Sequence record: OQ703618.1
Origin: Escherichia phage GADS24
DNA: 64,000 nucleotides
Reading direction: 5' to 3' (one strand)
Below are positions 16,594 to 34,493 of the stretch, in pieces (within the stretch, counting starts at the first letter, position 1; each line of letters starts with the position of its first letter). A program made the position numbers and the translations under genes. The notes beneath the pieces were generated by a model that did not search any database, was not told the origin of the DNA, and saw only the letters and a program-made list of their open reading frames with translations.

Positions 16594-17115
16594 TCAGTAA
16601 CCATTATCCTGGCGTTCAAAGTTGTGTTGGTTTTTCAAGTAGTAAAGTTTAAAGATTTCTTCAGCGGAAAGACCCAGACCTTGGAACATATTCAGAACAA
16701 AGTGGAGAATATCAATCATCTCAAATTTAATTTCAAGCTGGTCTTCAGGAGACAGTTCATCGATACGACGATTTCGATATTCAGCATGTTGTGCTTTCCA
16801 TGGCTTCCATACAGAGCTAGCGGCTTTTTCACCATTGCTCATACCACCGAGTGAAGTCAGCAGTTCACGGAATTCATCATCAATATAATCTTTCTGATTA
16901 CGCAGCCAATCAACAACATCACCGGCAGTGGCCAATTCATCAGGATGTTTGTTATGTTCAGGCTTGTCATTTGCCAGACGAACCTGTAAAGATTTCTGCA
17001 TATCAAGCATTACCTGAAGTGGGTCTTTATCTTCGTGAATCAGAGCATTAAAATAAGCTTCTTCTGCTTTATCAACACCAGAAATAAGTTGTGAACATTC
17101 ATTAAAGTGCGCCAT
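16594..17115 (-). CDS. 56: dCTP pyrophosphatase gp56 (MazG-like)
   Basis: Start MAHFNECSQ; strong similarity to T4 gp56. Confidence 0.85.
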   Translation of the reverse strand: MAHFNECSQLISGVDKAEEAYFNALIHEDKDPLQVMLDMQKSLQVRLANDKPEHNKHPDELATAGDVVDWLRNQKDYIDDEFRELLTSLGGMSNGEKAASSVWKPWKAQHAEYRNRRIDELSPEDQLEIKFEMIDILHFVLNMFQGLGLSAEEIFKLYYLKNQHNFERQDNGY

Positions 17116-17203
17116 TATTTTTCCTTTCAATTCAGTATAAGAGAGTTAATTCTAACATTAATTTTATAAAGCGTAATAAATAATAGGTAACTAAGGAGAT
17201 ATT

Positions 17204-19145: not shown

Positions 19146-19805
19146 TTAACCTCGATTCATAAATGCATTAAATATTTGGTCATCAACAGAAATTTCTAAT
19201 TCGACTTCAATTGTTTCAGCCTTTTCTTCAGGTGGTAATTCGTATCCACACACTACAATTTTTTCATCGATACCAAAATATACAGAAGCAATACGATTAA
19301 TGTTACTTTCAGTTAAGTCTAAATCAACATCAACATCTTTTTGACATACACTTAAAGGATAACTAATACGGGTTATTTTATTATCTTTAACAAAGAGTCC
19401 GCCAACATACTCTGTACTACGTTTGAAGTTTACACGTTTCCGAATTGAAAGATATGATACATCTTTACCGTGAGCTCGGCTCATAGGACATAATGAATAG
19501 CTAGAATAAGAGATGTCAAATCCTACACCTTCAATATGAGCCAACGCGTCATGATTAAACCAATTATAATCATATGCCAAATCCATTATATTGTAATATG
19601 TGAAAGGCATCGGATTAACATCATACGTTGTACCTTTAAAATCTGCCCAGGCGACGATTTCGTTATCTTTAACAATTACAAAAATTACACCAATATGATA
19701 TCCGTTATTATTTTCGTTAGGCGTTATATTATAACATTGTGCATTAGGAAATTTACCATATTTAAATGGCGCATTTTTGTGCATATAATAAATCATATTA
19801 TTCAC
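19146..19805 (-). CDS. hypothetical protein
   Basis: 219-aa ORF. Confidence 0.5.
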   Translation of the reverse strand: MNNMIYYMHKNAPFKYGKFPNAQCYNITPNENNNGYHIGVIFVIVKDNEIVAWADFKGTTYDVNPMPFTYYNIMDLAYDYNWFNHDALAHIEGVGFDISYSSYSLCPMSRAHGKDVSYLSIRKRVNFKRSTEYVGGLFVKDNKITRISYPLSVCQKDVDVDLDLTESNINRIASVYFGIDEKIVVCGYELPPEEKAETIEVELEISVDDQIFNAFMNRG

Positions 19806-23925: not shown

Positions 23926-25090
23926 CGAAATCTTCCATTTCGTCAAGGTCGTTTTCTATATCTGCTGCAGAAGGAGCATCAGAAGTTTTAACCGGAACTT
24001 TAGTTGTTGCTTTGCAATTAATAAGGTCATTAACAGCGTCATCAACTTCTTTAATAGAAGAGATAGCACCTAGTTTATATTTAGTTTCAATTGCATCTCG
24101 GAAAGGTTTGTGTTTAAACAATGGTCCCCAGAATTCTACACAATCAGTAGCTTTAGCACGCCATGATTTTTCTTCACGAATCATTTCACCTGTTTCTTCG
24201 TCAAGGAATTCACGAGCATACCAACCAGCTTTAGGCTTAACCACAAAACCGATTTCAGTTGCCATTTCTAACAAGCCGCTGAATGGGTCAATACCGCCAT
24301 CAAAATTAACCGTGATTGGGAAAGTAGATTTCTCTTTAACTGTACGAGATTTTTCTGCTTTCAACGTGAAGTCATAACCGGTCAATTCTGTACCTTCTTT
24401 AACCTGACGTTTAGAGATAAAGAATACAGTGTTAGCAGAGTAAAGAATACCTGTACCACCACCCATAATCTCTTTAGGATATAGACCGCCGATTTCCATT
24501 GCTGTATGGTTGATTGCAACACACGGAATATCTTTAATAGTCAGATAAGGAGTCACAATGCGGAACAGAGATTTAAGTGCCTTAGCACGAGACATATCAC
24601 CTACAACTTTCTCGTTCAACGCATCTTCGGTTTCTTTCTTAGATGCAGTATTACCGATTGAATCGATAAAGATAATAACTTTATCGCCGCGTTCAATCGC
24701 GTCAAGCTGATTAGTCATATCAACTTTAAGTTGTTCTACAGATTGAATCGGAGTATGAACTACACGGTCCAAATCAACACCCATTGAACGGAAGTAAGAT
24801 TCTGAAGCACCGAATTCTGAGTCATAAAACAAACAGATTGCATCTTTATATTTCTTCATATATGCTGCAACCATGGTCAGTCCAAACAACGTTTTAAAGT
24901 GTTTAGAAGGAGCAGCAAAAATAGTTAAGCCTGATTGCAACCCAGCATTCAGTGCACCACCTAATGCAATATTCAACATCGGAATACGAGTAGGGACTTC
25001 ATCACGATTATTAAACAGCTTAGACTTAGTCAAGTCTGCAGTCATTTTAGAAGTAGAAGCTTTAATCAGACGAGATTTTAAATCAGACAT
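23918..25090 (-). CDS. uvsX: UvsX recombinase (RecA-like)
   Basis: 390 aa; RecA-fold P-loop; T4 UvsX-like. Confidence 0.9.
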   Translation of the reverse strand: MSDLKSRLIKASTSKMTADLTKSKLFNNRDEVPTRIPMLNIALGGALNAGLQSGLTIFAAPSKHFKTLFGLTMVAAYMKKYKDAICLFYDSEFGASESYFRSMGVDLDRVVHTPIQSVEQLKVDMTNQLDAIERGDKVIIFIDSIGNTASKKETEDALNEKVVGDMSRAKALKSLFRIVTPYLTIKDIPCVAINHTAMEIGGLYPKEIMGGGTGILYSANTVFFISKRQVKEGTELTGYDFTLKAEKSRTVKEKSTFPITVNFDGGIDPFSGLLEMATEIGFVVKPKAGWYAREFLDEETGEMIREEKSWRAKATDCVEFWGPLFKHKPFRDAIETKYKLGAISSIKEVDDAVNDLINCKATTKVPVKTSDAPSAADIENDLDEMEDFDE

Positions 25091-25182
25091 TGTATTTTTC
25101 CATAGGCATCATTATATTTTACTCATGTTTAAAAGATAAGACGATTATATACTAAGGGTTATACAGCGTTTAAAACTTTAAA

Positions 25183-25200
25183 CAGGCTCTTAACGAGCCC
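25183..25200 (-). terminator. weak hairpin terminator after kinase gene
   Basis: Stem ggctc/gagcc followed by T-rich tract on minus. Confidence 0.3.
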
Positions 25201-25738
25201 ATTTGATAATTTCTGTAATCAAATTATTACGTTCGCTTGCATTAAATCCTATAACTTTGTTAGCACCATCATGATTAAGTAATTGATATGTTTGGATTTT
25301 GTTATGAATTGCAAACTCTTCAAAATGTGAAATGACTGTATTAAAACCGAATGAAGACAAAGTAATAAGGTCGTCTTCAAAACTTTCAGTCATTTCGTTA
25401 CGTGTTAAAATAATTGTGAACACATCATGGTTTTGGCAAAGACGAACATAATCCTGTTCATAAACATCAAGAACCGAGTCCGCATCTTGTCGAATACGTC
25501 CATAAACCCAGTTACTAATATATCCACGGTCTAACAGATAAATCTTAGTAGGGTCTAAATAATTCAACATCGTTTCGAAACAGCCAACTTCATTTCGAGA
25601 CTTAACATCAAAACGTCCATCAACTGTTCGTTTAGGGAAATCAATTTTTACATATCTTTCACTAATTTCCATTATGTCATTAATGAAAGTTGTTTTACCA
25701 GCATTATCCGGGCCATCTACTAAAATAATTTTAGCCAT
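25190..25738 (-). CDS. P-loop nucleoside/nucleotide kinase-like protein
   Basis: 182 aa; Walker A GPDNAGKTT; LLDRGY lid-like motif. Confidence 0.55.
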   Translation of the reverse strand: MAKIILVDGPDNAGKTTFINDIMEISERYVKIDFPKRTVDGRFDVKSRNEVGCFETMLNYLDPTKIYLLDRGYISNWVYGRIRQDADSVLDVYEQDYVRLCQNHDVFTIILTRNEMTESFEDDLITLSSFGFNTVISHFEEFAIHNKIQTYQLLNHDGANKVIGFNASERNNLITEIIKWAR

Positions 25739-25739
25739 T

Positions 25740-26639
25740 TTATTCCTCGATTACGACATCTTCGTATTTAGGTATATTATACGGTGAAGAAATTAAAGCA
25801 TTAAAGTAGATGAACTCGCCAAGACCTGGATGGAATACTTCTTCAGGATTTTCGAAATATTGAATCTTCGGCCGTCCTTTAAGAATTTGATAGTACTCAG
25901 TTTTAGTTGGTTTAAAAATTCGAATCAGCGCTTCTTCAGGATACTTATTTCTATCGAAGCTATTATTTGGATCGGTTACATAAAGCGGTTGACCTAATTG
26001 AATTGCACATTCAACCACTTGTTCAAAACGATAGCACGGGTCACTAATTCGAAATGGATGAAAAATACCATCTAGATGAATAGGAGCCAAATCACCTACA
26101 AAACGCTGCATGATGGAAGGACGTATAACTTTCTGGGTTACGATAATCTTATTACCATCTGCACCAGCGTTAACCAGCACTTCCTTTTGACGTTCATTCA
26201 ACACAGTAGTTTGAAGTGAACGATTAACCGACAACATGTCGGTTTTTAAGAATTCGTCAATATAAAAACGTGGTTTATTAGGGTCTGCAGTGATATTGAA
26301 ATTGAATTCTACATCAAAAGCTCCGTCATATCCAGTGATATCTGTTATTAGAAAATCACAATCATAATAAGCAATTAATGAATCAACCACAAATTCATTT
26401 TCAGACCAGAAATATTTACGAGTGTTATACGCGTTATCTTTATACCATAACGGAACAAACTTAAATTCTGGGAAAAGACGTTCACATTCTTTAATATCAG
26501 ATGCATTACGTGGATATGTAATAACATCACCCGGATTAGCACGGTGCAAATGAAGTTGGAAGTTGCCATCCTTAAGGATAGCATACTCTCCAGTTTCATA
26601 AGACCGCATACTCAAGATAGGTACGCGGAAAATAGCCAT
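25740..26639 (-). CDS. putative glycosyltransferase (GT-B-like) at the T4 beta-gt locus
   Basis: 299 aa; C-terminal FEQVVECAIQLGQPLYVTD resembles GT-B donor-binding motif; position uvsX-42. Confidence 0.45.
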   Translation of the reverse strand: MAIFRVPILSMRSYETGEYAILKDGNFQLHLHRANPGDVITYPRNASDIKECERLFPEFKFVPLWYKDNAYNTRKYFWSENEFVVDSLIAYYDCDFLITDITGYDGAFDVEFNFNITADPNKPRFYIDEFLKTDMLSVNRSLQTTVLNERQKEVLVNAGADGNKIIVTQKVIRPSIMQRFVGDLAPIHLDGIFHPFRISDPCYRFEQVVECAIQLGQPLYVTDPNNSFDRNKYPEEALIRIFKPTKTEYYQILKGRPKIQYFENPEEVFHPGLGEFIYFNALISSPYNIPKYEDVVIEE

Positions 26640-27355
26640 TAGTCAAGGAATCCTTTAACATAATCAAAATCACGTTCAAACACATGGGCACTTACCATGG
26701 TATGAGTATAATCACCAACTTCTACACCACATTCGTTAGCGATATAATGAAGTAATTTTCCTTGGAGATAAAAATCCAACTGCATAACAACAGCACAGTT
26801 CTGAGAACGCATATGGCAGTGGGTATAAAGCTTACCATCACGAATATAATAAGTCACTGAGTCAGTACATGGATATTCAAGCGTTTCGTCCGAATCAAGC
26901 AAAGCCTGATCAGAACTTTCTAGAATTTGGAACACAACTCTTCGAGAGTTAGGTTTCTCTTTAAGTTCTTTGAGAAGAGCTGGTAACTGGGCCGCAATTC
27001 GTGGACCATAGAAAGTGTTGAAGTTTGCAGGCAAAGCATCTGATTTCGGTTTAGAAATAAATTTAGCAACGTTAGGATATGCCTTAAATGCTTCTTCTGC
27101 ATCAGTTCCGCCAGAAATCATAAATTTCCAGAAATCTTCGGCATATTCATAAGAGATGCGGTTAATACGTGGGTCGGTCATTTTGAATGATGATGGAGTG
27201 TCAACAACTACTGTCATAGACCCAATTTCATTACAACGTCCAATACGAGAATCAGTTACGAATTCCGGGTTTTCTAAAATCTCACGATTGACTGCTTTAA
27301 ATGCGGATTGAAAATCTGCGGCTTTAATATATTTCATTGTGTTATGTTTTCCCAT
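26639..27355 (-). CDS. 42: dCMP hydroxymethylase gp42 (thymidylate synthase fold)
   Basis: 238 aa; NSRR...YPCTDSV...HMRSQN motifs parallel T4 gp42. Confidence 0.8.
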   Translation of the reverse strand: MGKHNTMKYIKAADFQSAFKAVNREILENPEFVTDSRIGRCNEIGSMTVVVDTPSSFKMTDPRINRISYEYAEDFWKFMISGGTDAEEAFKAYPNVAKFISKPKSDALPANFNTFYGPRIAAQLPALLKELKEKPNSRRVVFQILESSDQALLDSDETLEYPCTDSVTYYIRDGKLYTHCHMRSQNCAVVMQLDFYLQGKLLHYIANECGVEVGDYTHTMVSAHVFERDFDYVKGFLD

Positions 27356-27396
27356 GTTTACCTCAATACAGTTATTATATACTCAATTCATAAAGC

Positions 27397-27636
27397 TTAT
27401 TTGAATTTCTTAGCGATGTTGATATAACGTAGAGCTTCGGCATCGATACTTCTAAGGACACTATGAAGGAATGCGTCGGCATAGTATTCTAGTTGAACAG
27501 GTTCTTTAATCGCTTTAGCCGCTTTAGTTTCAAACAGGCCCATAAGGGCCTTTTTAAGAATTTGTTCGTTGCTGGTAATTTTAATAGTCAAAATCTCTTC
27601 ATTAAGTTGGTGGTTAAAAGTTTTTCTAGAAATCAT
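27397..27636 (-). CDS. hypothetical protein
   Basis: 79-aa ORF. Confidence 0.4.
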   Translation of the reverse strand: MISRKTFNHQLNEEILTIKITSNEQILKKALMGLFETKAAKAIKEPVQLEYYADAFLHSVLRSIDAEALRYINIAKKFK

Positions 27637-28793
27637 TCCGGGTACCTCAAAGCGTCGTCAGAGTTAGTTATATCAATAATAGATATAGAATTTTCTGATA
27701 ACCCATTTTTAGATAACTGACGTTTATAATATCTTTCACAATATGTACACGTCGTCCCGCAGATTTCATTAGCACAATCGAAATCTGGATGTCTGAACCA
27801 CCTTTTTTCTAAAAAGCCGTCTAACAAAGAGGTTTCAATATTTACCGTATGTGAAAACTCGGTCTCATTTTCAAGAGTGAAAATGGTCTCTAAAGGCTTC
27901 CACAGTTCTAACAAATTACCTTCAAACTTTTCAGAAGCGTATGCTTCAAGAACTTTCAAAATGTAGTCTGTGCTACCTGTACGTCCTGAAACTTTGAATT
28001 GAGTGATACCAATATCATTATAAAGTTTCAAATCTTGTGGACGAACAAAACGAGTTCTCAACCAGTTAAATGGGTCTGTATCACGAGCTTTAATACAGTG
28101 CTGCATAGGATATCCATTTAAGGATTTAGCATCATCAGCTGTAACATCAGTACTATGGAAAATATAGCAAGAGTCACGATAGCTACAATGTGTTGTATAC
28201 CCTTTACCAGCATTAGAACAGAACTCATTTACAAGAACTTCAAATATTATATTGTTCTTATTGCAAAACTCTGCTGCACGCTTCAGGAAAGAAACTGAAC
28301 GGTTCTTATGAATTCCACAGCAGACCTTTTTGATATTATACTGGTCATGTAAGTATTTGATTTGAGTTACAGCATCGACATGTAAAATTGTTGAAACTTC
28401 AATCTCAATGTCTTTATTGACTTCACGAACAATTTCCATAACAACAGGGTTAGCGATAGTAATACGCCATACGCCTATTGACCAAAGATACTGAACATAA
28501 TCCTGAATAGCTTTCTTCTTCCACTCAACTAGTTCTCTTTTTGAACCGGGATTTATCGTGTTGAGTGTATAGTTAAAGCAAATACCTAATTCGTTACAAC
28601 GTTTAACGTAATCTTCTAACATCTTTTTGTCAACGTCAGGAAGCCTAAAATCAGGTCTGGCTGCTACAAAAGCCATTTCTCTTGTAGAGCCGTATACTTC
28701 GTTTATCAAGCTATTAGGATAAGTTTTATTGAGCTCTACGATTTTATCAAGAAGAGCTAAATCAAAATTCGTTCCGATTTTAAAAGTATTCAT
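27633..28793 (-). CDS. Cys-rich hypothetical enzyme in modification cluster
   Basis: ~386 aa from ATG preceded by A9 tract; multiple Cys clusters (CCGIH, CANEICGTTCTYCE). Confidence 0.5.
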   Translation of the reverse strand: MNTFKIGTNFDLALLDKIVELNKTYPNSLINEVYGSTREMAFVAARPDFRLPDVDKKMLEDYVKRCNELGICFNYTLNTINPGSKRELVEWKKKAIQDYVQYLWSIGVWRITIANPVVMEIVREVNKDIEIEVSTILHVDAVTQIKYLHDQYNIKKVCCGIHKNRSVSFLKRAAEFCNKNNIIFEVLVNEFCSNAGKGYTTHCSYRDSCYIFHSTDVTADDAKSLNGYPMQHCIKARDTDPFNWLRTRFVRPQDLKLYNDIGITQFKVSGRTGSTDYILKVLEAYASEKFEGNLLELWKPLETIFTLENETEFSHTVNIETSLLDGFLEKRWFRHPDFDCANEICGTTCTYCERYYKRQLSKNGLSENSISIIDITNSDDALRYPE

Positions 28794-28852
28794 TTTTTTT
28801 TTGCATCTCACGTTAATTGACGCGATGGTTTTTGCAGGTCTTACTTAAATTA

Positions 28853-29239
28853 TTATAGATTCGGTTTATATGATTTAAATGTTTCGAATTCGCCTTTATT
28901 CATAAGAGCTTTGAATTCGTCGGGACGCATAGCTTTGTCGTCGATAATCCAATCATATACTGGTTTATGTGTTAGCAAATTATGGTACTTCAAGCCAATG
29001 TTTGCCAAGTTCTGAATAAGACTTGGGAGAATGTCAATTGCTATACGACCAGGACCTACTGACTTCATACCGCGAGCAGTGTAAAGCGTTATGGTATGCC
29101 CTGCATCATACAGGGCATTAATGGCAGACACCATTTCGACGTCTGGTTTGAAGTTCACGTAATCACGATTGTTATTCCACTCTGTTATACAATCATCGAC
29201 ATCAAAACAAAGATTAAGCATGTTTTCTACACGGTGCAT
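28853..29239 (-). CDS. HAD-like phosphatase (small)
   Basis: FDVDDC motif (DxD) near N-terminus; start overlaps upstream stop (TAATG). Confidence 0.45.
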   Translation of the reverse strand: MHRVENMLNLCFDVDDCITEWNNNRDYVNFKPDVEMVSAINALYDAGHTITLYTARGMKSVGPGRIAIDILPSLIQNLANIGLKYHNLLTHKPVYDWIIDDKAMRPDEFKALMNKGEFETFKSYKPNL

Positions 29240-30924
29240 TAGATTCGTTCCCATTGATGAGTGATATCGCCACCGATTGGACGATAGGAAACACCAGTTT
29301 CTTTATCAGTTAGTACCCATTTACCAGGATTTTTTGTAATCAGAGTAGCCGTTACAGGTTCTGCCATGTCATAACTAATAGAGCCGTCCTGAAGTACACG
29401 GCCCATGTTACGTAATTGCTTAGTCAGAAGTTCCATACCTTTATAATATGCGGCTACCGCTTTAAGTGGATTATTCTTGAAATAACCACCTAATGCAATC
29501 CAGATAATTGCTACAGCCAAATGATGATACTCGTTAAATGAACTCATCTTTCCATATTTGTAAACTAATGGATTGATGTTAATAGTCACATTACAAGTTG
29601 TTTCATCAATAGTAAACTGTCCCCAGGTCGGATTAGCGTTGAATTCATCATAACCTGAAACAGCATAAAGCACTTTAGCTTCATCGTACAATTTTGGCCC
29701 GTAAATCTTGGTTTCGCCAAAATATCCACGAGGGTCGATAAACTTGACTTCGCCGTTATCAGTAATCATAGTATTACTGAAGTTCGGGTCACCGTGAATA
29801 ACAGAGTACTGTCCCTGAGAACGGTTATGATAACGAATAAGGTGTTCTAAAGCTTGTTTCAGCATTGGCTTCAGACGCCCAATCTTAGTGTAGTTCACAT
29901 GTGTGATTTTACCAAATGAATCAATCAATGGTTGAATACTTTCACAACGATCAATAACTTTCGTATAGAATTCTTTAGTGAAATCACGACGAACAGTTTC
30001 AGGACTTACAAAATAAGTGTCTGTGCTGAATTTCAGTGCATCTAAAATTGCATCAACAATTTGTGGACGAGCAAGACTCGATTTAGATTTAATATATTCA
30101 AATGCCGGCTTACCTTTAATGCGTTCCATTTCAAAGTTATTTTCATTAACAGAAACTAACTGAGGAACTGAATCTGATTTCACTTTAAGATACCATGAAA
30201 TCTCATCTTTCTGAAGAGCTCGTCCCTGTTCGGTTAATGCGAATTTAGTTACAGTTTCTTCACCAATTTCAACTGCATTAAAACTACGATTAAGTTCACG
30301 AACTTCATGAGCTTTTTCAAGTTTAGGCATATCACCTAAATCAATTAGATTCATAAGCTCTGATTTATTGAATGCGCCGCTGTAAAGGAATTCTACGAAA
30401 TCACGTCCTTTGCAGTATTCATGAATTTCCTCATCAGTAGAACCCATATAGAATTCCCAGTCTTTGAATTGATAAATTCCTACAACATTACCACCTGTTG
30501 AACCTACGTTAGTGATATTTTCACCGTCGAAATTATATCGACATTCGTCACCCTTAACATAGATTGCGTTAACATTCCAAGACCATGAACCAAAATCAGG
30601 AATAATATCACACCAGTTAACAATTACATTATGGCCGTCTAAATCTTTGTGTAATTTAGCAAGAGCATAAGCGGAACCATATGCTTCATCAACTGTACGA
30701 ATAGTCACATTGAACCCTTCTTGCTCACAATAAGCTCGAACAGTTTCAGCAAATTTTGAATGAACTACTACAATAATTTCATCTGCGCCAAGGTCAGAAT
30801 AAATTGTATACAAATTGCTCAGAATAGTGTCTTGTTTATAGTTAACAAGCACCTTAGGAATATGATGCGTTATTGGATACAAACGAGTTGCCAGTCCAGC
30901 ACCAAGAATAACAGCTTTTTTCAT
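29239..30924 (-). CDS. bifunctional sugar-1-phosphate nucleotidyltransferase / APH-like sugar kinase
   Basis: N-term GAGLATRLYPITHHIPKVL (G-x-G-T-R NTase); C-term HGDPNFSN and IDPRG (Brenner kinase motifs). Confidence 0.7.
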   Translation of the reverse strand: MKKAVILGAGLATRLYPITHHIPKVLVNYKQDTILSNLYTIYSDLGADEIIVVVHSKFAETVRAYCEQEGFNVTIRTVDEAYGSAYALAKLHKDLDGHNVIVNWCDIIPDFGSWSWNVNAIYVKGDECRYNFDGENITNVGSTGGNVVGIYQFKDWEFYMGSTDEEIHEYCKGRDFVEFLYSGAFNKSELMNLIDLGDMPKLEKAHEVRELNRSFNAVEIGEETVTKFALTEQGRALQKDEISWYLKVKSDSVPQLVSVNENNFEMERIKGKPAFEYIKSKSSLARPQIVDAILDALKFSTDTYFVSPETVRRDFTKEFYTKVIDRCESIQPLIDSFGKITHVNYTKIGRLKPMLKQALEHLIRYHNRSQGQYSVIHGDPNFSNTMITDNGEVKFIDPRGYFGETKIYGPKLYDEAKVLYAVSGYDEFNANPTWGQFTIDETTCNVTININPLVYKYGKMSSFNEYHHLAVAIIWIALGGYFKNNPLKAVAAYYKGMELLTKQLRNMGRVLQDGSISYDMAEPVTATLITKNPGKWVLTDKETGVSYRPIGGDITHQWERI

Positions 30925-30952
30925 GTTGTGGTCCTCATTGGTAAGTAGGAGT

Positions 30953-30977
30953 ATTGTACACTATTCTAGTTAAAGCA
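30953..30977 (-). promoter_or_regulatory. T4-type middle promoter (MotA box TGCTTTA, 12-bp spacer, -10 TACAAT)
   Basis: Minus-strand motif ~30 nt upstream of NTase-kinase ATG. Confidence 0.45.
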
Positions 30978-31099
30978 TTCATACTTTGCTTGTAGTCCAA
31001 TCATAATCCATCCAATTACAAGTGTTGGAATCATTACTGGAGCCGTTAAGCTCCAGTAGATAGTCATGACAAGCATCAATAGTAAAAGTCCTATTGTTA
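30956..31099 (-). CDS. small hydrophobic protein (47 aa)
   Basis: Hand-translated MKAITIGLLLLMLVMTIYW...; overlaps middle promoter. Confidence 0.25.
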
Positions 31100-31105
31100 T
31101 TGCTT

Positions 31106-31741
31106 TCATTGTTCGCCTCGTAACATGGCACCTAGTGCACCACCAGGGTGGAACTTAAGGAAGTCATTAGAGGTAAATCCACGTTCAGACGAAAGGTTGA
31201 TAGCGAACGTATCGATAAGCGCTAACAACAATGTAGTAGACATTGTCGGAGCTAAAGAGTTCTCGTCAACTTCTACCGCGATGCCTGTACAGAAAGAGTA
31301 ATCAAAAAGGGCTTCATTTTCTTGCGGAATGTCAGGGTTACAATGTAACAGAATCTGTTTAACCTGAGGACGAATCATACGAAGATGTTTAGCAACACCT
31401 ATCATTTCTTCGGTTTTACCAGAACGACTAATATGAATCAACACATCATTAGGCGCAATGAATCCTGCATCACCGTGAGAATAATGCCCAGTGTTCAAGT
31501 ACATACTCGGGATACCGAGTGAAGCAAATGTCTCAGAAGCTTTAGTTGCAATATTAGCATTCTTACCAACACCTGTAATAATTACTCGGCTTTCATAATT
31601 ACTAAGTCCTGGGCGTCGAAGAGTTTCTAGAATAGCATTATAACGAGCAGGGTTTTGACTAATTACTTTGGCCATAGTAGCCAAAGAAGAAGCTTGTTTT
31701 ACGATTGCGTCAATAGCGATAGTAATAGGAGTAGTTTTCAT
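31106..31741 (-). CDS. SIS-domain sugar phosphate isomerase (KdsD/GutQ-type arabinose-5-phosphate isomerase-like, no CBS domains)
   Basis: 211 aa; GVGKNANIATKASETFASLGIPS...HGD...ISRSGKTEE matches SIS signature. Confidence 0.7.
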   Translation of the reverse strand: MKTTPITIAIDAIVKQASSLATMAKVISQNPARYNAILETLRRPGLSNYESRVIITGVGKNANIATKASETFASLGIPSMYLNTGHYSHGDAGFIAPNDVLIHISRSGKTEEMIGVAKHLRMIRPQVKQILLHCNPDIPQENEALFDYSFCTGIAVEVDENSLAPTMSTTLLLALIDTFAINLSSERGFTSNDFLKFHPGGALGAMLRGEQ

Positions 31742-31781
31742 ATTTCTCTCATTTAATTAGTTTACCGTCCATGGTATTATA

Positions 31782-34493
31782 TCAAAAATCGAACATATCG
31801 AACAGAGATGCTTTCTTCTCGTAATCGAGTTTCGCCGCTGATGTGAATCCTTCAAGTGGTTTAATAAATGTCTTCTCAAGGAGAACAGTGTAGTCCATCC
31901 AATGAAGTACGTCGTCTTTAATTAAATCTGTGATTTCAGTACCAGAAGGCCATGCGATACATTTATCACCGAATGGGTTTCCTTCACGTAAAGGCAGAAC
32001 ATATACTTTTTCACCTTCTACAACTTGCGGTGCATCGATATTACCTTTGATAGCTCTGTTATATGTCAGAATTCCACGAATATGGAACGGACATTTAGGA
32101 CCAGGGAATCCACCAACGTCATATTTAGCAATGTTATTCGCAGAAGATACCGACGCGATGCTAATATAATTCAATTGACGGAATTCTTTTTCAAACTCTT
32201 TAAAATATTCTTGTAATGATTCTTCACCTTCTTGAAGCATACGGCGAATACATTCTTTAAGAGCTTTCTGTACTGCTTTAGGGGTCGAAGATTTCTGAGT
32301 CTCTAGACCCATGATTTTGAGTTTAGGCTCAGCGTAACGAGTACCTTCCATATCCCACACGTTTAATGCATAACGTTTCTTACCAGTCCAGAATCCACCA
32401 ATACCTTTAGAACCGAGTGGAGGACCAGCGATAGCTTCTCGGTCCATGAACATTAAGTGTTGTTTATTGTTCATGTATTCACACATTTCACGGAAACCTC
32501 TATCAATAGCTGGTTCCATACGTTCACGTGCAAACTTATCTAAGAAGTCTACCCAATGGTTGGTATCACGGAATTTAGATTCACCAACCTTATCAATAAT
32601 TTTATCAGCAGATACGTAAATAGAGTCTGTATCACCATAAAGAACGAAAGCTTCACCTTCTGTGCCACAAACTTCATTCAGATATTCATTAACTTTACGT
32701 TCAATCCACTGTAAAGCCATTTGCCCGAATGTTGTGATTGCAGTAGCATTACGCAAATCATAATAACGGAACCAAACGTTGCCAAGTGCACCATAAAGTG
32801 AGTTGATAAGCAATTTACGGTTAATTTGGGCAGTCATACCTGCAACTTCAGTACGTTGAGCTCTAAACAACATTTCATTAAGAGATTTAGCAGACAACTT
32901 TTTAATCTTTTCTTTAATCTCATCACTGAAGTCGAAACGATAATCAACATCTAACGGTTCGTCAACAGAAAGATTAGGATTATGCAATGCCTCTTTAATT
33001 ATTTCACCGTTACGTTGAGCCGCAAGCATATAACCTTTATGTTCTTTACGTTGATTAAAGACTTTAGTGATTTCAGTTGGAACAACACCGTCACGGTCTT
33101 TATAATACATCATGCCGTTAGGAGAACAACTGTACACATCAGAAGGTCGTTCAGCAACAGCGTTAATATAATCATGCAATGGAGCTACTTTAAACGTTCC
33201 TGCTATTGTTTCTGGGCTAATATTCACTTGGCGAATAATACTTGGATACAGAGATGTGAGGTCGAAGCTCATCACATATTTGTATCGATTTGGAATAGGT
33301 TCCTTAACAAAAGCGCCAGGATAAGGTTGAACCGGATGAGAACGACCTTGTGGAATCACCTTGTTCTGCTCTTTAAGGCTATTAAAAATAATAGCATCCC
33401 ATGTTTTAATAGGGCTAAACACAGATTGAATCTGTATCTTAGCATAATAACCCATGTCCAAGCTCAAGTTAATGAACTGACGTTTACCATCAATTTGCAA
33501 TACACGATACACGTCGATAATGTTATAAGAAATATATCGTTGGTGATTGCTTTCACGAAGCTTAGAAATAGGGCCGTCATATTTCAGTTTACCAACGTTC
33601 AATTCAAATTCTGAAATGTAATCCAGAGAATACGACGGTTGATTAGTAAAAGAGAATTTTTTGTAAAGGTCAATGTAATCAAGAACAGAGATACCGAACA
33701 ATGTAATGATTTCACGAGAACCATACATGTTTTCGATAACTTTAACACGTGTTTTACGATGCGGTGATAAACGTTTCGCAGTAGATTCGCCAAAAATATT
33801 CTTGATTCGGTTATACACATATGGAATATCAAATGACTCAACGTTCCATCCAGTCAAAATGACAGGAGTTTTCTGTTGCCAGAAGTTGAGATATTCCATC
33901 AACAATTCTTTTTCATTATCGAACGGCATATAAACGATTTTGTCGATAATTTCGGATGGAACTTCATCACCACCTTGTTCTTGAAGCTTAGCAGCAATTT
34001 CGATAGACCATTCTTCCACATTACCATATGGAGAATTCAAAAGGTCAAATACGTAGAACCTGTCGTCAATTGAGTCATAATGGGTGATAGCATCAATTGG
34101 ATGTTTTGCTTGTGACGGCTCAGGGAACCCGTCTGGAGATGTTACTTCGATGTCGAAGTTAGCCACACGAATTTTTGTATGGTCGTATTTGATTTCATAG
34201 TTATAAGTGTCAGACAAATACGCCAATTTGAAATCGTCCATGCCAAGTGCTTCAAGTCCGATATCTTCCATGCGTTTAATCCATTGGGAGGCATCACGCA
34301 TATTGGCGAACAACTTACGAGTACACGGCTTACCGTAGATATCGAAATATTTCGTAGCCTGACTTTCCGGACAATGAGCAAACAGTGATGGTTTATATTC
34401 TACTTCACGAGTACGTTCACGGCCATTAGAATCGATGTAACGTTCAAAAATTGAATCACCAATCTGTTCAACCGTTAAGTAAAATTCTTTCAT
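31782..34493 (-). CDS. 43: DNA polymerase gp43 (family B, RB69-type, 903 aa)
   Basis: Exo motifs FDIEV, YGDTDS polymerase motif; recognised as RB69-like gp43. Confidence 0.95.
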   Translation of the reverse strand: MKEFYLTVEQIGDSIFERYIDSNGRERTREVEYKPSLFAHCPESQATKYFDIYGKPCTRKLFANMRDASQWIKRMEDIGLEALGMDDFKLAYLSDTYNYEIKYDHTKIRVANFDIEVTSPDGFPEPSQAKHPIDAITHYDSIDDRFYVFDLLNSPYGNVEEWSIEIAAKLQEQGGDEVPSEIIDKIVYMPFDNEKELLMEYLNFWQQKTPVILTGWNVESFDIPYVYNRIKNIFGESTAKRLSPHRKTRVKVIENMYGSREIITLFGISVLDYIDLYKKFSFTNQPSYSLDYISEFELNVGKLKYDGPISKLRESNHQRYISYNIIDVYRVLQIDGKRQFINLSLDMGYYAKIQIQSVFSPIKTWDAIIFNSLKEQNKVIPQGRSHPVQPYPGAFVKEPIPNRYKYVMSFDLTSLYPSIIRQVNISPETIAGTFKVAPLHDYINAVAERPSDVYSCSPNGMMYYKDRDGVVPTEITKVFNQRKEHKGYMLAAQRNGEIIKEALHNPNLSVDEPLDVDYRFDFSDEIKEKIKKLSAKSLNEMLFRAQRTEVAGMTAQINRKLLINSLYGALGNVWFRYYDLRNATAITTFGQMALQWIERKVNEYLNEVCGTEGEAFVLYGDTDSIYVSADKIIDKVGESKFRDTNHWVDFLDKFARERMEPAIDRGFREMCEYMNNKQHLMFMDREAIAGPPLGSKGIGGFWTGKKRYALNVWDMEGTRYAEPKLKIMGLETQKSSTPKAVQKALKECIRRMLQEGEESLQEYFKEFEKEFRQLNYISIASVSSANNIAKYDVGGFPGPKCPFHIRGILTYNRAIKGNIDAPQVVEGEKVYVLPLREGNPFGDKCIAWPSGTEITDLIKDDVLHWMDYTVLLEKTFIKPLEGFTSAAKLDYEKKASLFDMFDF

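Follow-up and report, generated by a model that had tools for sequence, protein, structure and literature searches.

The DNA analysed here, referred to as the window, is a stretch of 64,000 nucleotides from Escherichia phage GADS24 (OQ703618.1). On sequence grounds the window is assigned to an RB69-like Mosigvirus, that is, a T4-like phage of the Straboviridae, Tevenvirinae, because the gene cluster under study is flanked by ORFs for UvsX, DNA polymerase gp43, RegA, and the clamp loader gp62/gp44, and because a megablast search with positions 25000-31800 gave Escherichia phage JN02 as the top match (98.5%) and 97.5% identity to RB69. Altogether 151 phage records matched this region at a query coverage of at least 80%. 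The cluster is located between gene 43 and uvsX, and every gene in it lies on the minus strand. In the order of transcription it consists of an SIS isomerase gene, a 47-aa ORF, the target gene of this study, a HAD gene, a U32-family gene, a 79-aa ORF, a ThyA-like gene, gp46:47, and a TMK-like gene. The features of the cluster, and two genes located elsewhere in the window, are the following:

31106..31741, minus strand: SIS-domain D-arabinose-5-phosphate isomerase (RB69 gp55); Pfam SIS, phrog_5670
30966..31109, minus strand: small hydrophobic ORF of 47 aa, lying between isomerase and target gene and overlapping the isomerase stop (ATGA)
29239..30924, minus strand: target gene, AfhE orthologue (RB69 gp52:53 / ORF53_52c), 561 aa; from the ORF list, HY126 similarity, and phrog_4098
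28853..29239, minus strand: HAD-like phosphatase AfhF (RB69 gp51); 128 aa, starting with the ATG at 29239
27633..28811, minus strand: peptidase-U32-family protein (RB69 gp50); Pfam PF01136, phrog_5757
26639..27355, minus strand: ThyA-like flavin-dependent 5-hydroxy-dCMP synthase (RB69 gp48); Pfam Thymidylat_synt, PDB 9iqc/9ir2 with E 1.8e-162
25740..26639, minus strand: DNA arabinosyltransferase 1 (RB69 gp46:47); intact 299-aa ORF, 98% identity to the HY126 homologue
25190..25738, minus strand: thymidylate-kinase-like nucleotide kinase (RB69 gp45); phrog_761, RB69 annotation
16594..17130, minus strand: probable dCTPase (T4 gp56-like); Pfam dUTPase_2, 29.4 bits
3807..4907, minus strand: second arabinosyltransferase, homologous to RB69 ORF003c; lies between rIIA and topoisomerase gp39

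The target gene is one unbroken frame of 561 aa with an ATG start, exactly where the initial annotation had placed it, and a GAGG ribosome-binding site is located 8 nt upstream of the start codon. The match of its product to phrog_4098 covered residues 1-561 (of 559; E 1e-294). Compared with XAN60479.1 of phage HY126, 542 of 562 positions were identical (96%) and neither end was truncated. The differences, 20 substitutions and a 1-residue indel, cluster at about aa 240-265 in the N-lobe of the kinase and leave the catalytic residues untouched. The two-domain architecture of the target is common to AfhE of HY126, RB69 gp52:53 (ORF53_52c), and DLP3 gp82, and Lee et al. (2026, NAR; PMC13326640) equate gp52:53 with HY126 AfhE. 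Table 1 of that paper attaches NP_861742 to the N-terminal domain, while in the RB69 record the N-terminal piece, ORF053c, is NP_861743. The HY126 AfhE locus has the same flanks, in the same order, as the target, i.e., the SIS isomerase, the 47-aa ORF, AfhF, the U32-family gene, the ThyA-like hydroxylase, the glycosyltransferase, and the TMK-like gene.

The initial annotation had described the product as a nucleotidyltransferase (NTase) and an APH-like kinase joined in one protein, and the domain and structure analyses bore this out. Three regions can be distinguished in the protein:

30310..30924, minus strand: nucleotidylyltransferase domain at the N-terminus (aa 1 to ~205); its GAGLATRL motif spans 30880..30903
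29410..30297, minus strand: C-terminal APH/choline-kinase-fold domain (aa ~210-505); its motifs HGDPNFSN and IDPRG span 29773..29796 and 29725..29739, respectively
29242..29409, minus strand: C-terminal tail (aa ~506-561), with a pLDDT of 78-87, lower than in the rest of the protein

The N-terminal motif GAGLATRL (aa 8-15) aligns to AAGLGTRL of LicC. The G-x-G-T-R signature proposed for this site is therefore present in a slightly modified form, as its arginine (R14) is invariant but its second glycine is replaced by alanine. The HGDxxxxN and IDxxG motifs noted for the C-terminal half were found as HGDPNFSN (aa 377-384) and IDPRG (aa 396-400). A Pfam search, which had been suggested for both domains, supported the first of them, since NTP_transferase (PF00483) scored 39.1 bits at aa 3-99 against a gathering score of 21.2, but APH (PF01636) gave no match to the target at E ≤ 0.01. 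All Pfam matches to the kinase half stayed below the gathering score, including Fructosamin_kin (17.1 vs. 22.4), EcKL (16.2 vs. 22), and RIO1, and structure prediction was therefore needed for the C-terminal half. Two orthologues, P0056 (25.6) and P0082 (28.6), exceeded the Pfam APH cut-off of 23.2. The AlphaFold2 model, built from an alignment of 55 homologues with identities to the target down to about 28%, reached a pLDDT of 94.0 and a pTM of 0.90 and displayed an NTase-like N-domain and an APH-like C-domain, as the initial annotation had anticipated. In Foldseek searches against the PDB, the N-domain matched RmlA, MurU, HddC, LicC, and IPCT with E-values of about 1e-8 to 1e-7, and the C-domain matched APH(2'')-IIa (3ham) with an E-value of 2.3e-7, its structural neighbours being APH, choline kinase, FN3K, and LicA. 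The kinase fold of the target is bilobal, and both the Brenner motif H-x-D-x4-N and a metal-binding Asp are present. These structural matches agree with Table 1 of Lee et al. (PMC13326640). A sequence search of the PDB with the target returned only remote NTases, the best being LicC with an E-value of 2e-5, and no AfhE structure. Thomas et al. (2018; PMC6024577) at first thought of a GT-A glycosyltransferase and then dropped the idea; it was rejected here too, as the structural neighbours are pyrophosphorylases.

A loss of catalytic residues, which the initial annotation had named as a possible objection, was not seen. Invariant in all 55 homologues are G10, R14, K24, D106, D195, and D198 of the NTase domain and K227, E241, D379, N384, D397, R399, and G400 of the kinase domain. 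Among the latter, K227 is assigned as the predicted ATP-binding Lys, D379 as the predicted catalytic base, and D397 as the predicted metal-binding Asp. The C-terminal tail aligns in the Straboviridae orthologues only, and tblastn alignments of the target with distant homologues stop at about aa 497-502.

The neighbouring genes were analyzed in the same manner. The SIS isomerase matched 3etn (E 3e-25) and the arabinose-5-phosphate isomerase 2xhz (E 7.5e-19) in the PDB. The stop codon of the target and the start codon of AfhF share 1 nt (TAATG), and AfhF is predicted to be translationally coupled to the target; in the PDB, AfhF is 100% identical to 9iqw (E 8e-88) and also matched 1xpj (E 5e-10). 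The 47-aa ORF is conserved in RB69, HY126, X20, and JS98; the U32-family gene was, among the loci examined, present in RB69, HY126, and X20 only. The gp46:47 glycosyltransferase gene is split in the RB69 record and intact in the window, and the second arabinosyltransferase is 98.9% identical to RB69p003. The gene at 16594..17130, which we take to be T4 gp56-like from its dUTPase_2 match and the T4 gene order, would be expected to deplete canonical dCTP. In Lee et al. (2026; PMC13326640), RB69p028 is listed as dCTPase, the 5-hydroxy-dCMP synthase function of the ThyA-like enzyme is demonstrated, gp46:47 is assigned as an arabinosyltransferase (Table 1), and ORF003c is assigned as a second one. 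The context of an AfhE gene was thus found around the target, with an arabinose-5-phosphate isomerase upstream, AfhF directly downstream, and a 5-hydroxy-dCMP synthase and an arabinosyltransferase in the cluster. Between positions 25000 and 32000, 22 sigma-70 promoter-like sites (25.9 expected) and three terminator-like sites (4.1 expected) were counted, and no Rfam family reached the gathering score anywhere in the window.

A tblastn search gave matches to the protein in 373 phage records, with a coverage of at least 80% in 363. Homologues are carried by Mosigvirus, Winklervirus (X20, 73% identity), Tegunavirus and Yersinia phages, and Dhakavirus (JS98, 42.5% identity), by phages of Enterobacter, Klebsiella, Acinetobacter (DLP1, Maestro; 54-57% identity), Providencia, and Proteus, and, more distantly, by Tenacibaculum and Vibrio phages. 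In the 13.7-kb loci of X20, Maestro, and JS98 the HAD gene directly follows the AfhE homologue, and ThyA-like and glycosyltransferase genes are present in the same locus. The initial annotation had regarded the fused, phage-encoded form as unusual, but being full-length in 363 phage records, the NTase-kinase fusion is common in phages.

The target gene very probably encodes the Mosigvirus orthologue of AfhE, an enzyme that would make UDP-D-arabinofuranose, the donor for arabinosylating 5-hydroxycytosine in the phage DNA. For this assignment, our analysis contributes the domain architecture, the conservation of catalytic residues, orthology, and synteny, while the enzymatic activities are taken from the literature on AfhE and AfhF of HY126 and the DNA modification from that on RB69 and its relatives; that GADS24 itself follows the HY126/RB69 chemistry is what we infer. 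The HY126 activities were determined by He et al. (2026), as relayed in Lee et al. (2026; PMC13326640), whose text gives arabinose-5-phosphate as the reported substrate of AfhE, converted to arabinose-1,5-bisphosphate, and UDP-D-arabinose as the reported product. The statement on AfhE function there cites both He et al. (2026) and Mahler et al. (2025), and the same text reports arabinosyl-5-hydroxycytosine in virion DNA as shown for RB69, DLP3, and NP. Earlier, Thomas et al. (2018; PMC6024577) had proposed a role in UDP-arabinose generation for ORF53_52c together with the SIS protein ORF055c.

According to the proposed route, the SIS isomerase would convert host ribulose-5-phosphate to D-arabinose-5-phosphate, and the C-terminal APH-fold kinase domain of AfhE would phosphorylate the anomeric C1 of arabinose-5-phosphate, giving arabinose-1,5-bisphosphate. 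From this, the HAD phosphatase AfhF/gp51 would remove the 5-phosphate, and the resulting arabinose-1-phosphate would be joined with UTP to UDP-arabinose (UDP-arabinofuranose) by the N-terminal nucleotidylyltransferase domain of AfhE. The ThyA-like 5-hydroxy-dCMP synthase would bring in 5-hydroxycytosine at the nucleotide stage, and the two glycosyltransferases would move arabinose onto 5-hydroxycytosine in the DNA.

The gene content alone is equally compatible with a salvage-type order, in which the HAD protein makes free D-arabinose from arabinose-5-phosphate, the kinase acts on its C1, and the NTase then activates the product. The nearest folds to the C-domain (choline kinase, APH, and fructosamine kinase) use unphosphorylated small molecules, and Table 1 of Lee et al. 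(PMC13326640) is worded accordingly, its kinase entry reading 'Phosphorylates Ara to Araf1p' and its HAD entry 'dephosphorylates Araf5p to Ara'. However, this order is contradicted by the biochemical summary in the text of the same paper, where the structural matches of the DLP3 HAD orthologue also include heptose-1,7-bisphosphate 7-phosphatase. In addition, the invariant basic kinase residues R213, K322, R326, R399, and K417 could bind a substrate phosphate. We therefore consider the salvage order improbable. The initial annotation had invoked salvage-type logic, and while the NDP-sugar product that it foresaw stands, salvage of a free sugar is probably wrong given the reported substrate, arabinose-5-phosphate.

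It is more improbable still that the protein makes another product unrelated to DNA arabinosylation, such as a CDP-, GDP-, or dTDP-sugar, or acts on a phosphocholine-like substrate as LicC/LicA do. The top structural neighbours indeed use CTP (LicC, IPCT), dTTP (RmlA), or GTP (HddC, GMPP), the database names for the target family are inconsistent (GlmU, guanylyltransferase, mannose-1-P guanyltransferase), and the distant homologues in Vibrio phage 6E35-1b lie in a non-ThyA context. On the other hand, the target is 96% identical to an enzyme reported to make UDP-D-arabinose, it is in strict synteny with an arabinose-5-phosphate isomerase and arabinosyltransferases, and arabinose on 5-hydroxycytosine is present in RB69-type DNA. 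Finally, the view that the fusion is artefactual and that the locus holds two separate genes or a pseudogene, as suggested by the two overlapping CDSs annotated in the RB69 reference record (ORF053c, 221 aa, and ORF052c, 346 aa), has a negligible probability and was rejected: the frame is uninterrupted in the window, in a three-way DNA alignment the RB69 record had a single extra C that neither the window nor HY126 contains, re-sequencing identified this base (C-29116) as an error, the 561-residue, 63.9-kDa RB69 product, named ORF53_52c, was expressed as a single band consistent with that mass (Thomas et al. 2018; PMC6024577), and the full-length form recurs in the 363 phage records.

The preferred route, via the bisphosphate, shares its pathway logic with ADP-heptose synthesis by GmhA, HldE, and GmhB, both using an SIS isomerase, an anomeric kinase, a HAD phosphatase, and an NTase. 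In Gram-negative bacteria, ADP-heptose is made by the successive action of the isomerase GmhA, the kinase of HldE, which yields a bisphosphate, the phosphatase GmhB, and the adenylyltransferase of HldE. HldE combines a PfkB/ribokinase-type kinase with a cytidylyltransferase-type adenylyltransferase. The folds of AfhE differ from these, its kinase being of the APH/choline-kinase type and its NTase of the RmlA/LicC/GlmU type, and the AfhE route uses a pentose and UTP. The target has no Pfam match to PfkB or CTP_transf_like, and its structural neighbours have other folds; it is thus HldE-like in its working and not a member of the HldE family. The kinases of the pairs LicC/LicA, MurU/AmgK, and GlmU/NahK take choline, MurNAc/GlcNAc, and GlcNAc/GalNAc, respectively, all unphosphorylated, in salvage or recycling. 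Unlike these, AfhE has arabinose-5-phosphate as its reported substrate and a dedicated phosphatase between its two steps, according to Lee et al. (PMC13326640), and the identity of the target to the proteins of these pairs is only 12-20%. In T4, the slot between gene 43 and uvsX is taken up instead by the genes for the dCMP hydroxymethylase gp42 and the alpha- and beta-glucosyltransferases. This glucosyl-hydroxymethylcytosine system serves the same purpose as the AfhE cluster, hypermodification of cytosine against restriction and CRISPR, but it draws on host UDP-glucose and, unlike the AfhE cluster, needs no genes for sugar activation.

A search of 5.8 billion proteins revealed multi-domain relatives beyond the phages. 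Among them are proteins of 890-955 aa with the domain order HAD-SIS-NTase-kinase, which retain the full set of catalytic residues of the target; altogether 18 multi-domain relatives keep the same NTase and kinase catalytic residues, the sole exception being one E241Q. In relatives of 777-790 aa, a cupin-type isomerase-like C-terminus replaces the SIS domain. Fusions of the NTase-kinase-SIS type in Butyrivibrio were noted earlier by Thomas et al. (2018; PMC6024577). One of the fusions (P0091) originates from a transcriptome of the slime mould Ceratiomyxa fruticulosa. Another (P0084) is encoded on contigs that also carry genes for MutS7-HNH, RNA polymerase Rpb2, and RNA_pol_N, and a third (P0118) has epimerase and glycosyltransferase genes next to it, with a dUTPase gene and a second paralogue close by. 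The contexts of the latter two look like those of giant viruses. No ThyA-like gene was found within 8 kb on either side of the giant-virus-like fusions; a role in DNA modification is therefore not supported for them, and a glycan role seems more likely. By joining the domains in one chain, the HAD-SIS-NTase-kinase fusions provide a Rosetta-stone link between the three genes of the pathway. It is conceivable, though we hold it to be doubtful, that an NDP-pentose pathway, largely uncharacterised and broader than phage DNA modification, has the NTase-kinase module at its core. If so, the HAD-SIS-NTase-kinase fusion would be a single-chain synthase leading from ribulose-5-phosphate to NDP-arabinose, probably for virion or cell glycans and not for DNA.

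The target gene belongs to the arabinosyl-5-hydroxycytosine pathway, has been described and assigned a function before, and is not a new finding; no novel reading survives for the gene itself. It adds a further intact copy of a known gene, in another RB69-like phage, and it draws attention to outdated database names, the target appearing as GlmU, guanylyltransferase, or hypothetical protein and the HAD neighbour as "phosphoheptose isomerase". The biological significance of AfhE is already known from publications of 2018, 2025, and 2026. AfhE gives RB69-type phages a nucleotide sugar that is not known from their enterobacterial hosts, and its pathway lets arabinosylated 5-hydroxycytosine replace every cytosine in the phage DNA. 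Many restriction enzymes are blocked by arabinosyl-5-hydroxycytosine, as are the glycosylase Brig1 and type I CRISPR-Cas, and the modification has a bearing on both phage therapy and phage engineering.

A peptidase-U32-family gene lies within the arabinosylation cluster, and a short ORF separates it from the ThyA-like gene:

27633..28811, (-) strand, peptidase-U32-family gene
27397..27636, (-) strand, 79-aa ORF of phrog_8601, unknown function

The U32-family protein has a Cys-rich C-terminus (CANEICGTTCTYC). Its gene was found in the RB69, HY126, and X20 loci and is missing from the Maestro and JS98 clusters, and is therefore not essential to the core pathway. Relatives of the U32 family include the O2-independent hydroxylases RlhA, TrhP, and UbiU/V; by analogy, the cluster's protein could conceivably open an anaerobic route to 5-hydroxycytosine. 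For this protein, Lee et al. 2026 (PMC13326640) offer 'sugar or heterocycle reductase' as a guess. The modification pathway can probably do without the 79-aa ORF, as its counterpart in HY126 is truncated to 40 aa (L002:9287-9409).

At the other end of the AfhE orthologue, a strongly hydrophobic ORF overlaps the stop codon of the isomerase gene (ATGA):

30966..31109, (-) strand, 47-aa ORF, MKAITIGLLLLMLVMTIYWSLTAPVMIPTLVIGWIMIGLQAKYECFN

This ORF is kept in RB69, HY126, X20, and JS98, being annotated in RB69 in a shorter form (ORF054c, 36 aa), and it probably contributes a small membrane protein to the cluster. The first arabinosyltransferase of GADS24 is encoded by a single intact ORF of 299 aa (25740..26639, (-) strand), which the RB69 GenBank record divides into ORF046c and ORF047c (L001:2240-3140). 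The split is a second frameshift error of the RB69 GenBank reference, and the error at this gene was also pointed out by Lee et al. 2026 (PMC13326640).

The AfhE orthologue itself ends in a tail of about 55 residues:

29242..29409, (-) strand, C-terminal tail, aa about 506-561

The tail is modeled with lower confidence (pLDDT 78-87). It can be aligned in the Straboviridae orthologues examined, and no alignment was obtained in the giant-virus, Vibrio-phage, and Tenacibaculum-phage relatives. Its role is possibly in oligomerisation or partner docking.

Elsewhere in the window, a 219-aa protein (19146..19805, (-) strand) matches Pfam AdfA (anti-DarT factor A) with an E-value of 1.4e-117. T4-like phages are known to use this gene to counter the DarTG1 defence.

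The cluster of the Dhakavirus JS98 (L005 1-13671) contains homologues of AfhE, the HAD phosphatase, and the TMK-like, ThyA-like, and GT proteins. A homologue of the SIS isomerase was not found by tblastn within 6 kb on each side, and its slot is taken by orf43 (166 aa); arabinose-5-P may be supplied by the host KdsD/GutQ. In Tenacibaculum phage PTm5 (L006 6001-8939), the AfhE homologue is a distant one (27.5% identity), and the gene behind it is annotated as 'histidine phosphatase', not as a HAD phosphatase. Next comes a ThyA-like gene whose product is 38% identical to gp48, the RB69 5-hydroxy-dCMP synthase. The phosphatase step of PTm5 may have undergone non-homologous replacement.

Among the more distant relatives, P0106, P0107, P0111, P0112, and P0116 (777-790 aa) combine the NTase-kinase with a C-terminal cupin/mannose-6-P-isomerase-like extension and have no SIS partner, which suggests that the module is here coupled to a differently folded isomerase; the sugar handled may be different as well. 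The domain order HAD-SIS-NTase-kinase is seen in proteins of 890-955 aa (P0084, P0088, P0089, P0091, P0092, P0096, P0109, and P0118), although P0118 has no clear SIS domain:

L008:8001-10781, P0084 fusion
L011:8001-10679, P0118 fusion

All catalytic residues of the GADS24 protein are retained in these fusions. The contigs bearing them are giant-virus-like, with MutS7-HNH, Rpb2, dUTPase, and glycan-synthesis genes, and one fusion comes from a slime mould transcriptome (Ceratiomyxa fruticulosa). Such a HAD-SIS-NTase-kinase fusion would constitute the entire pathway from ribulose-5-P to NDP-pentose on a single chain.
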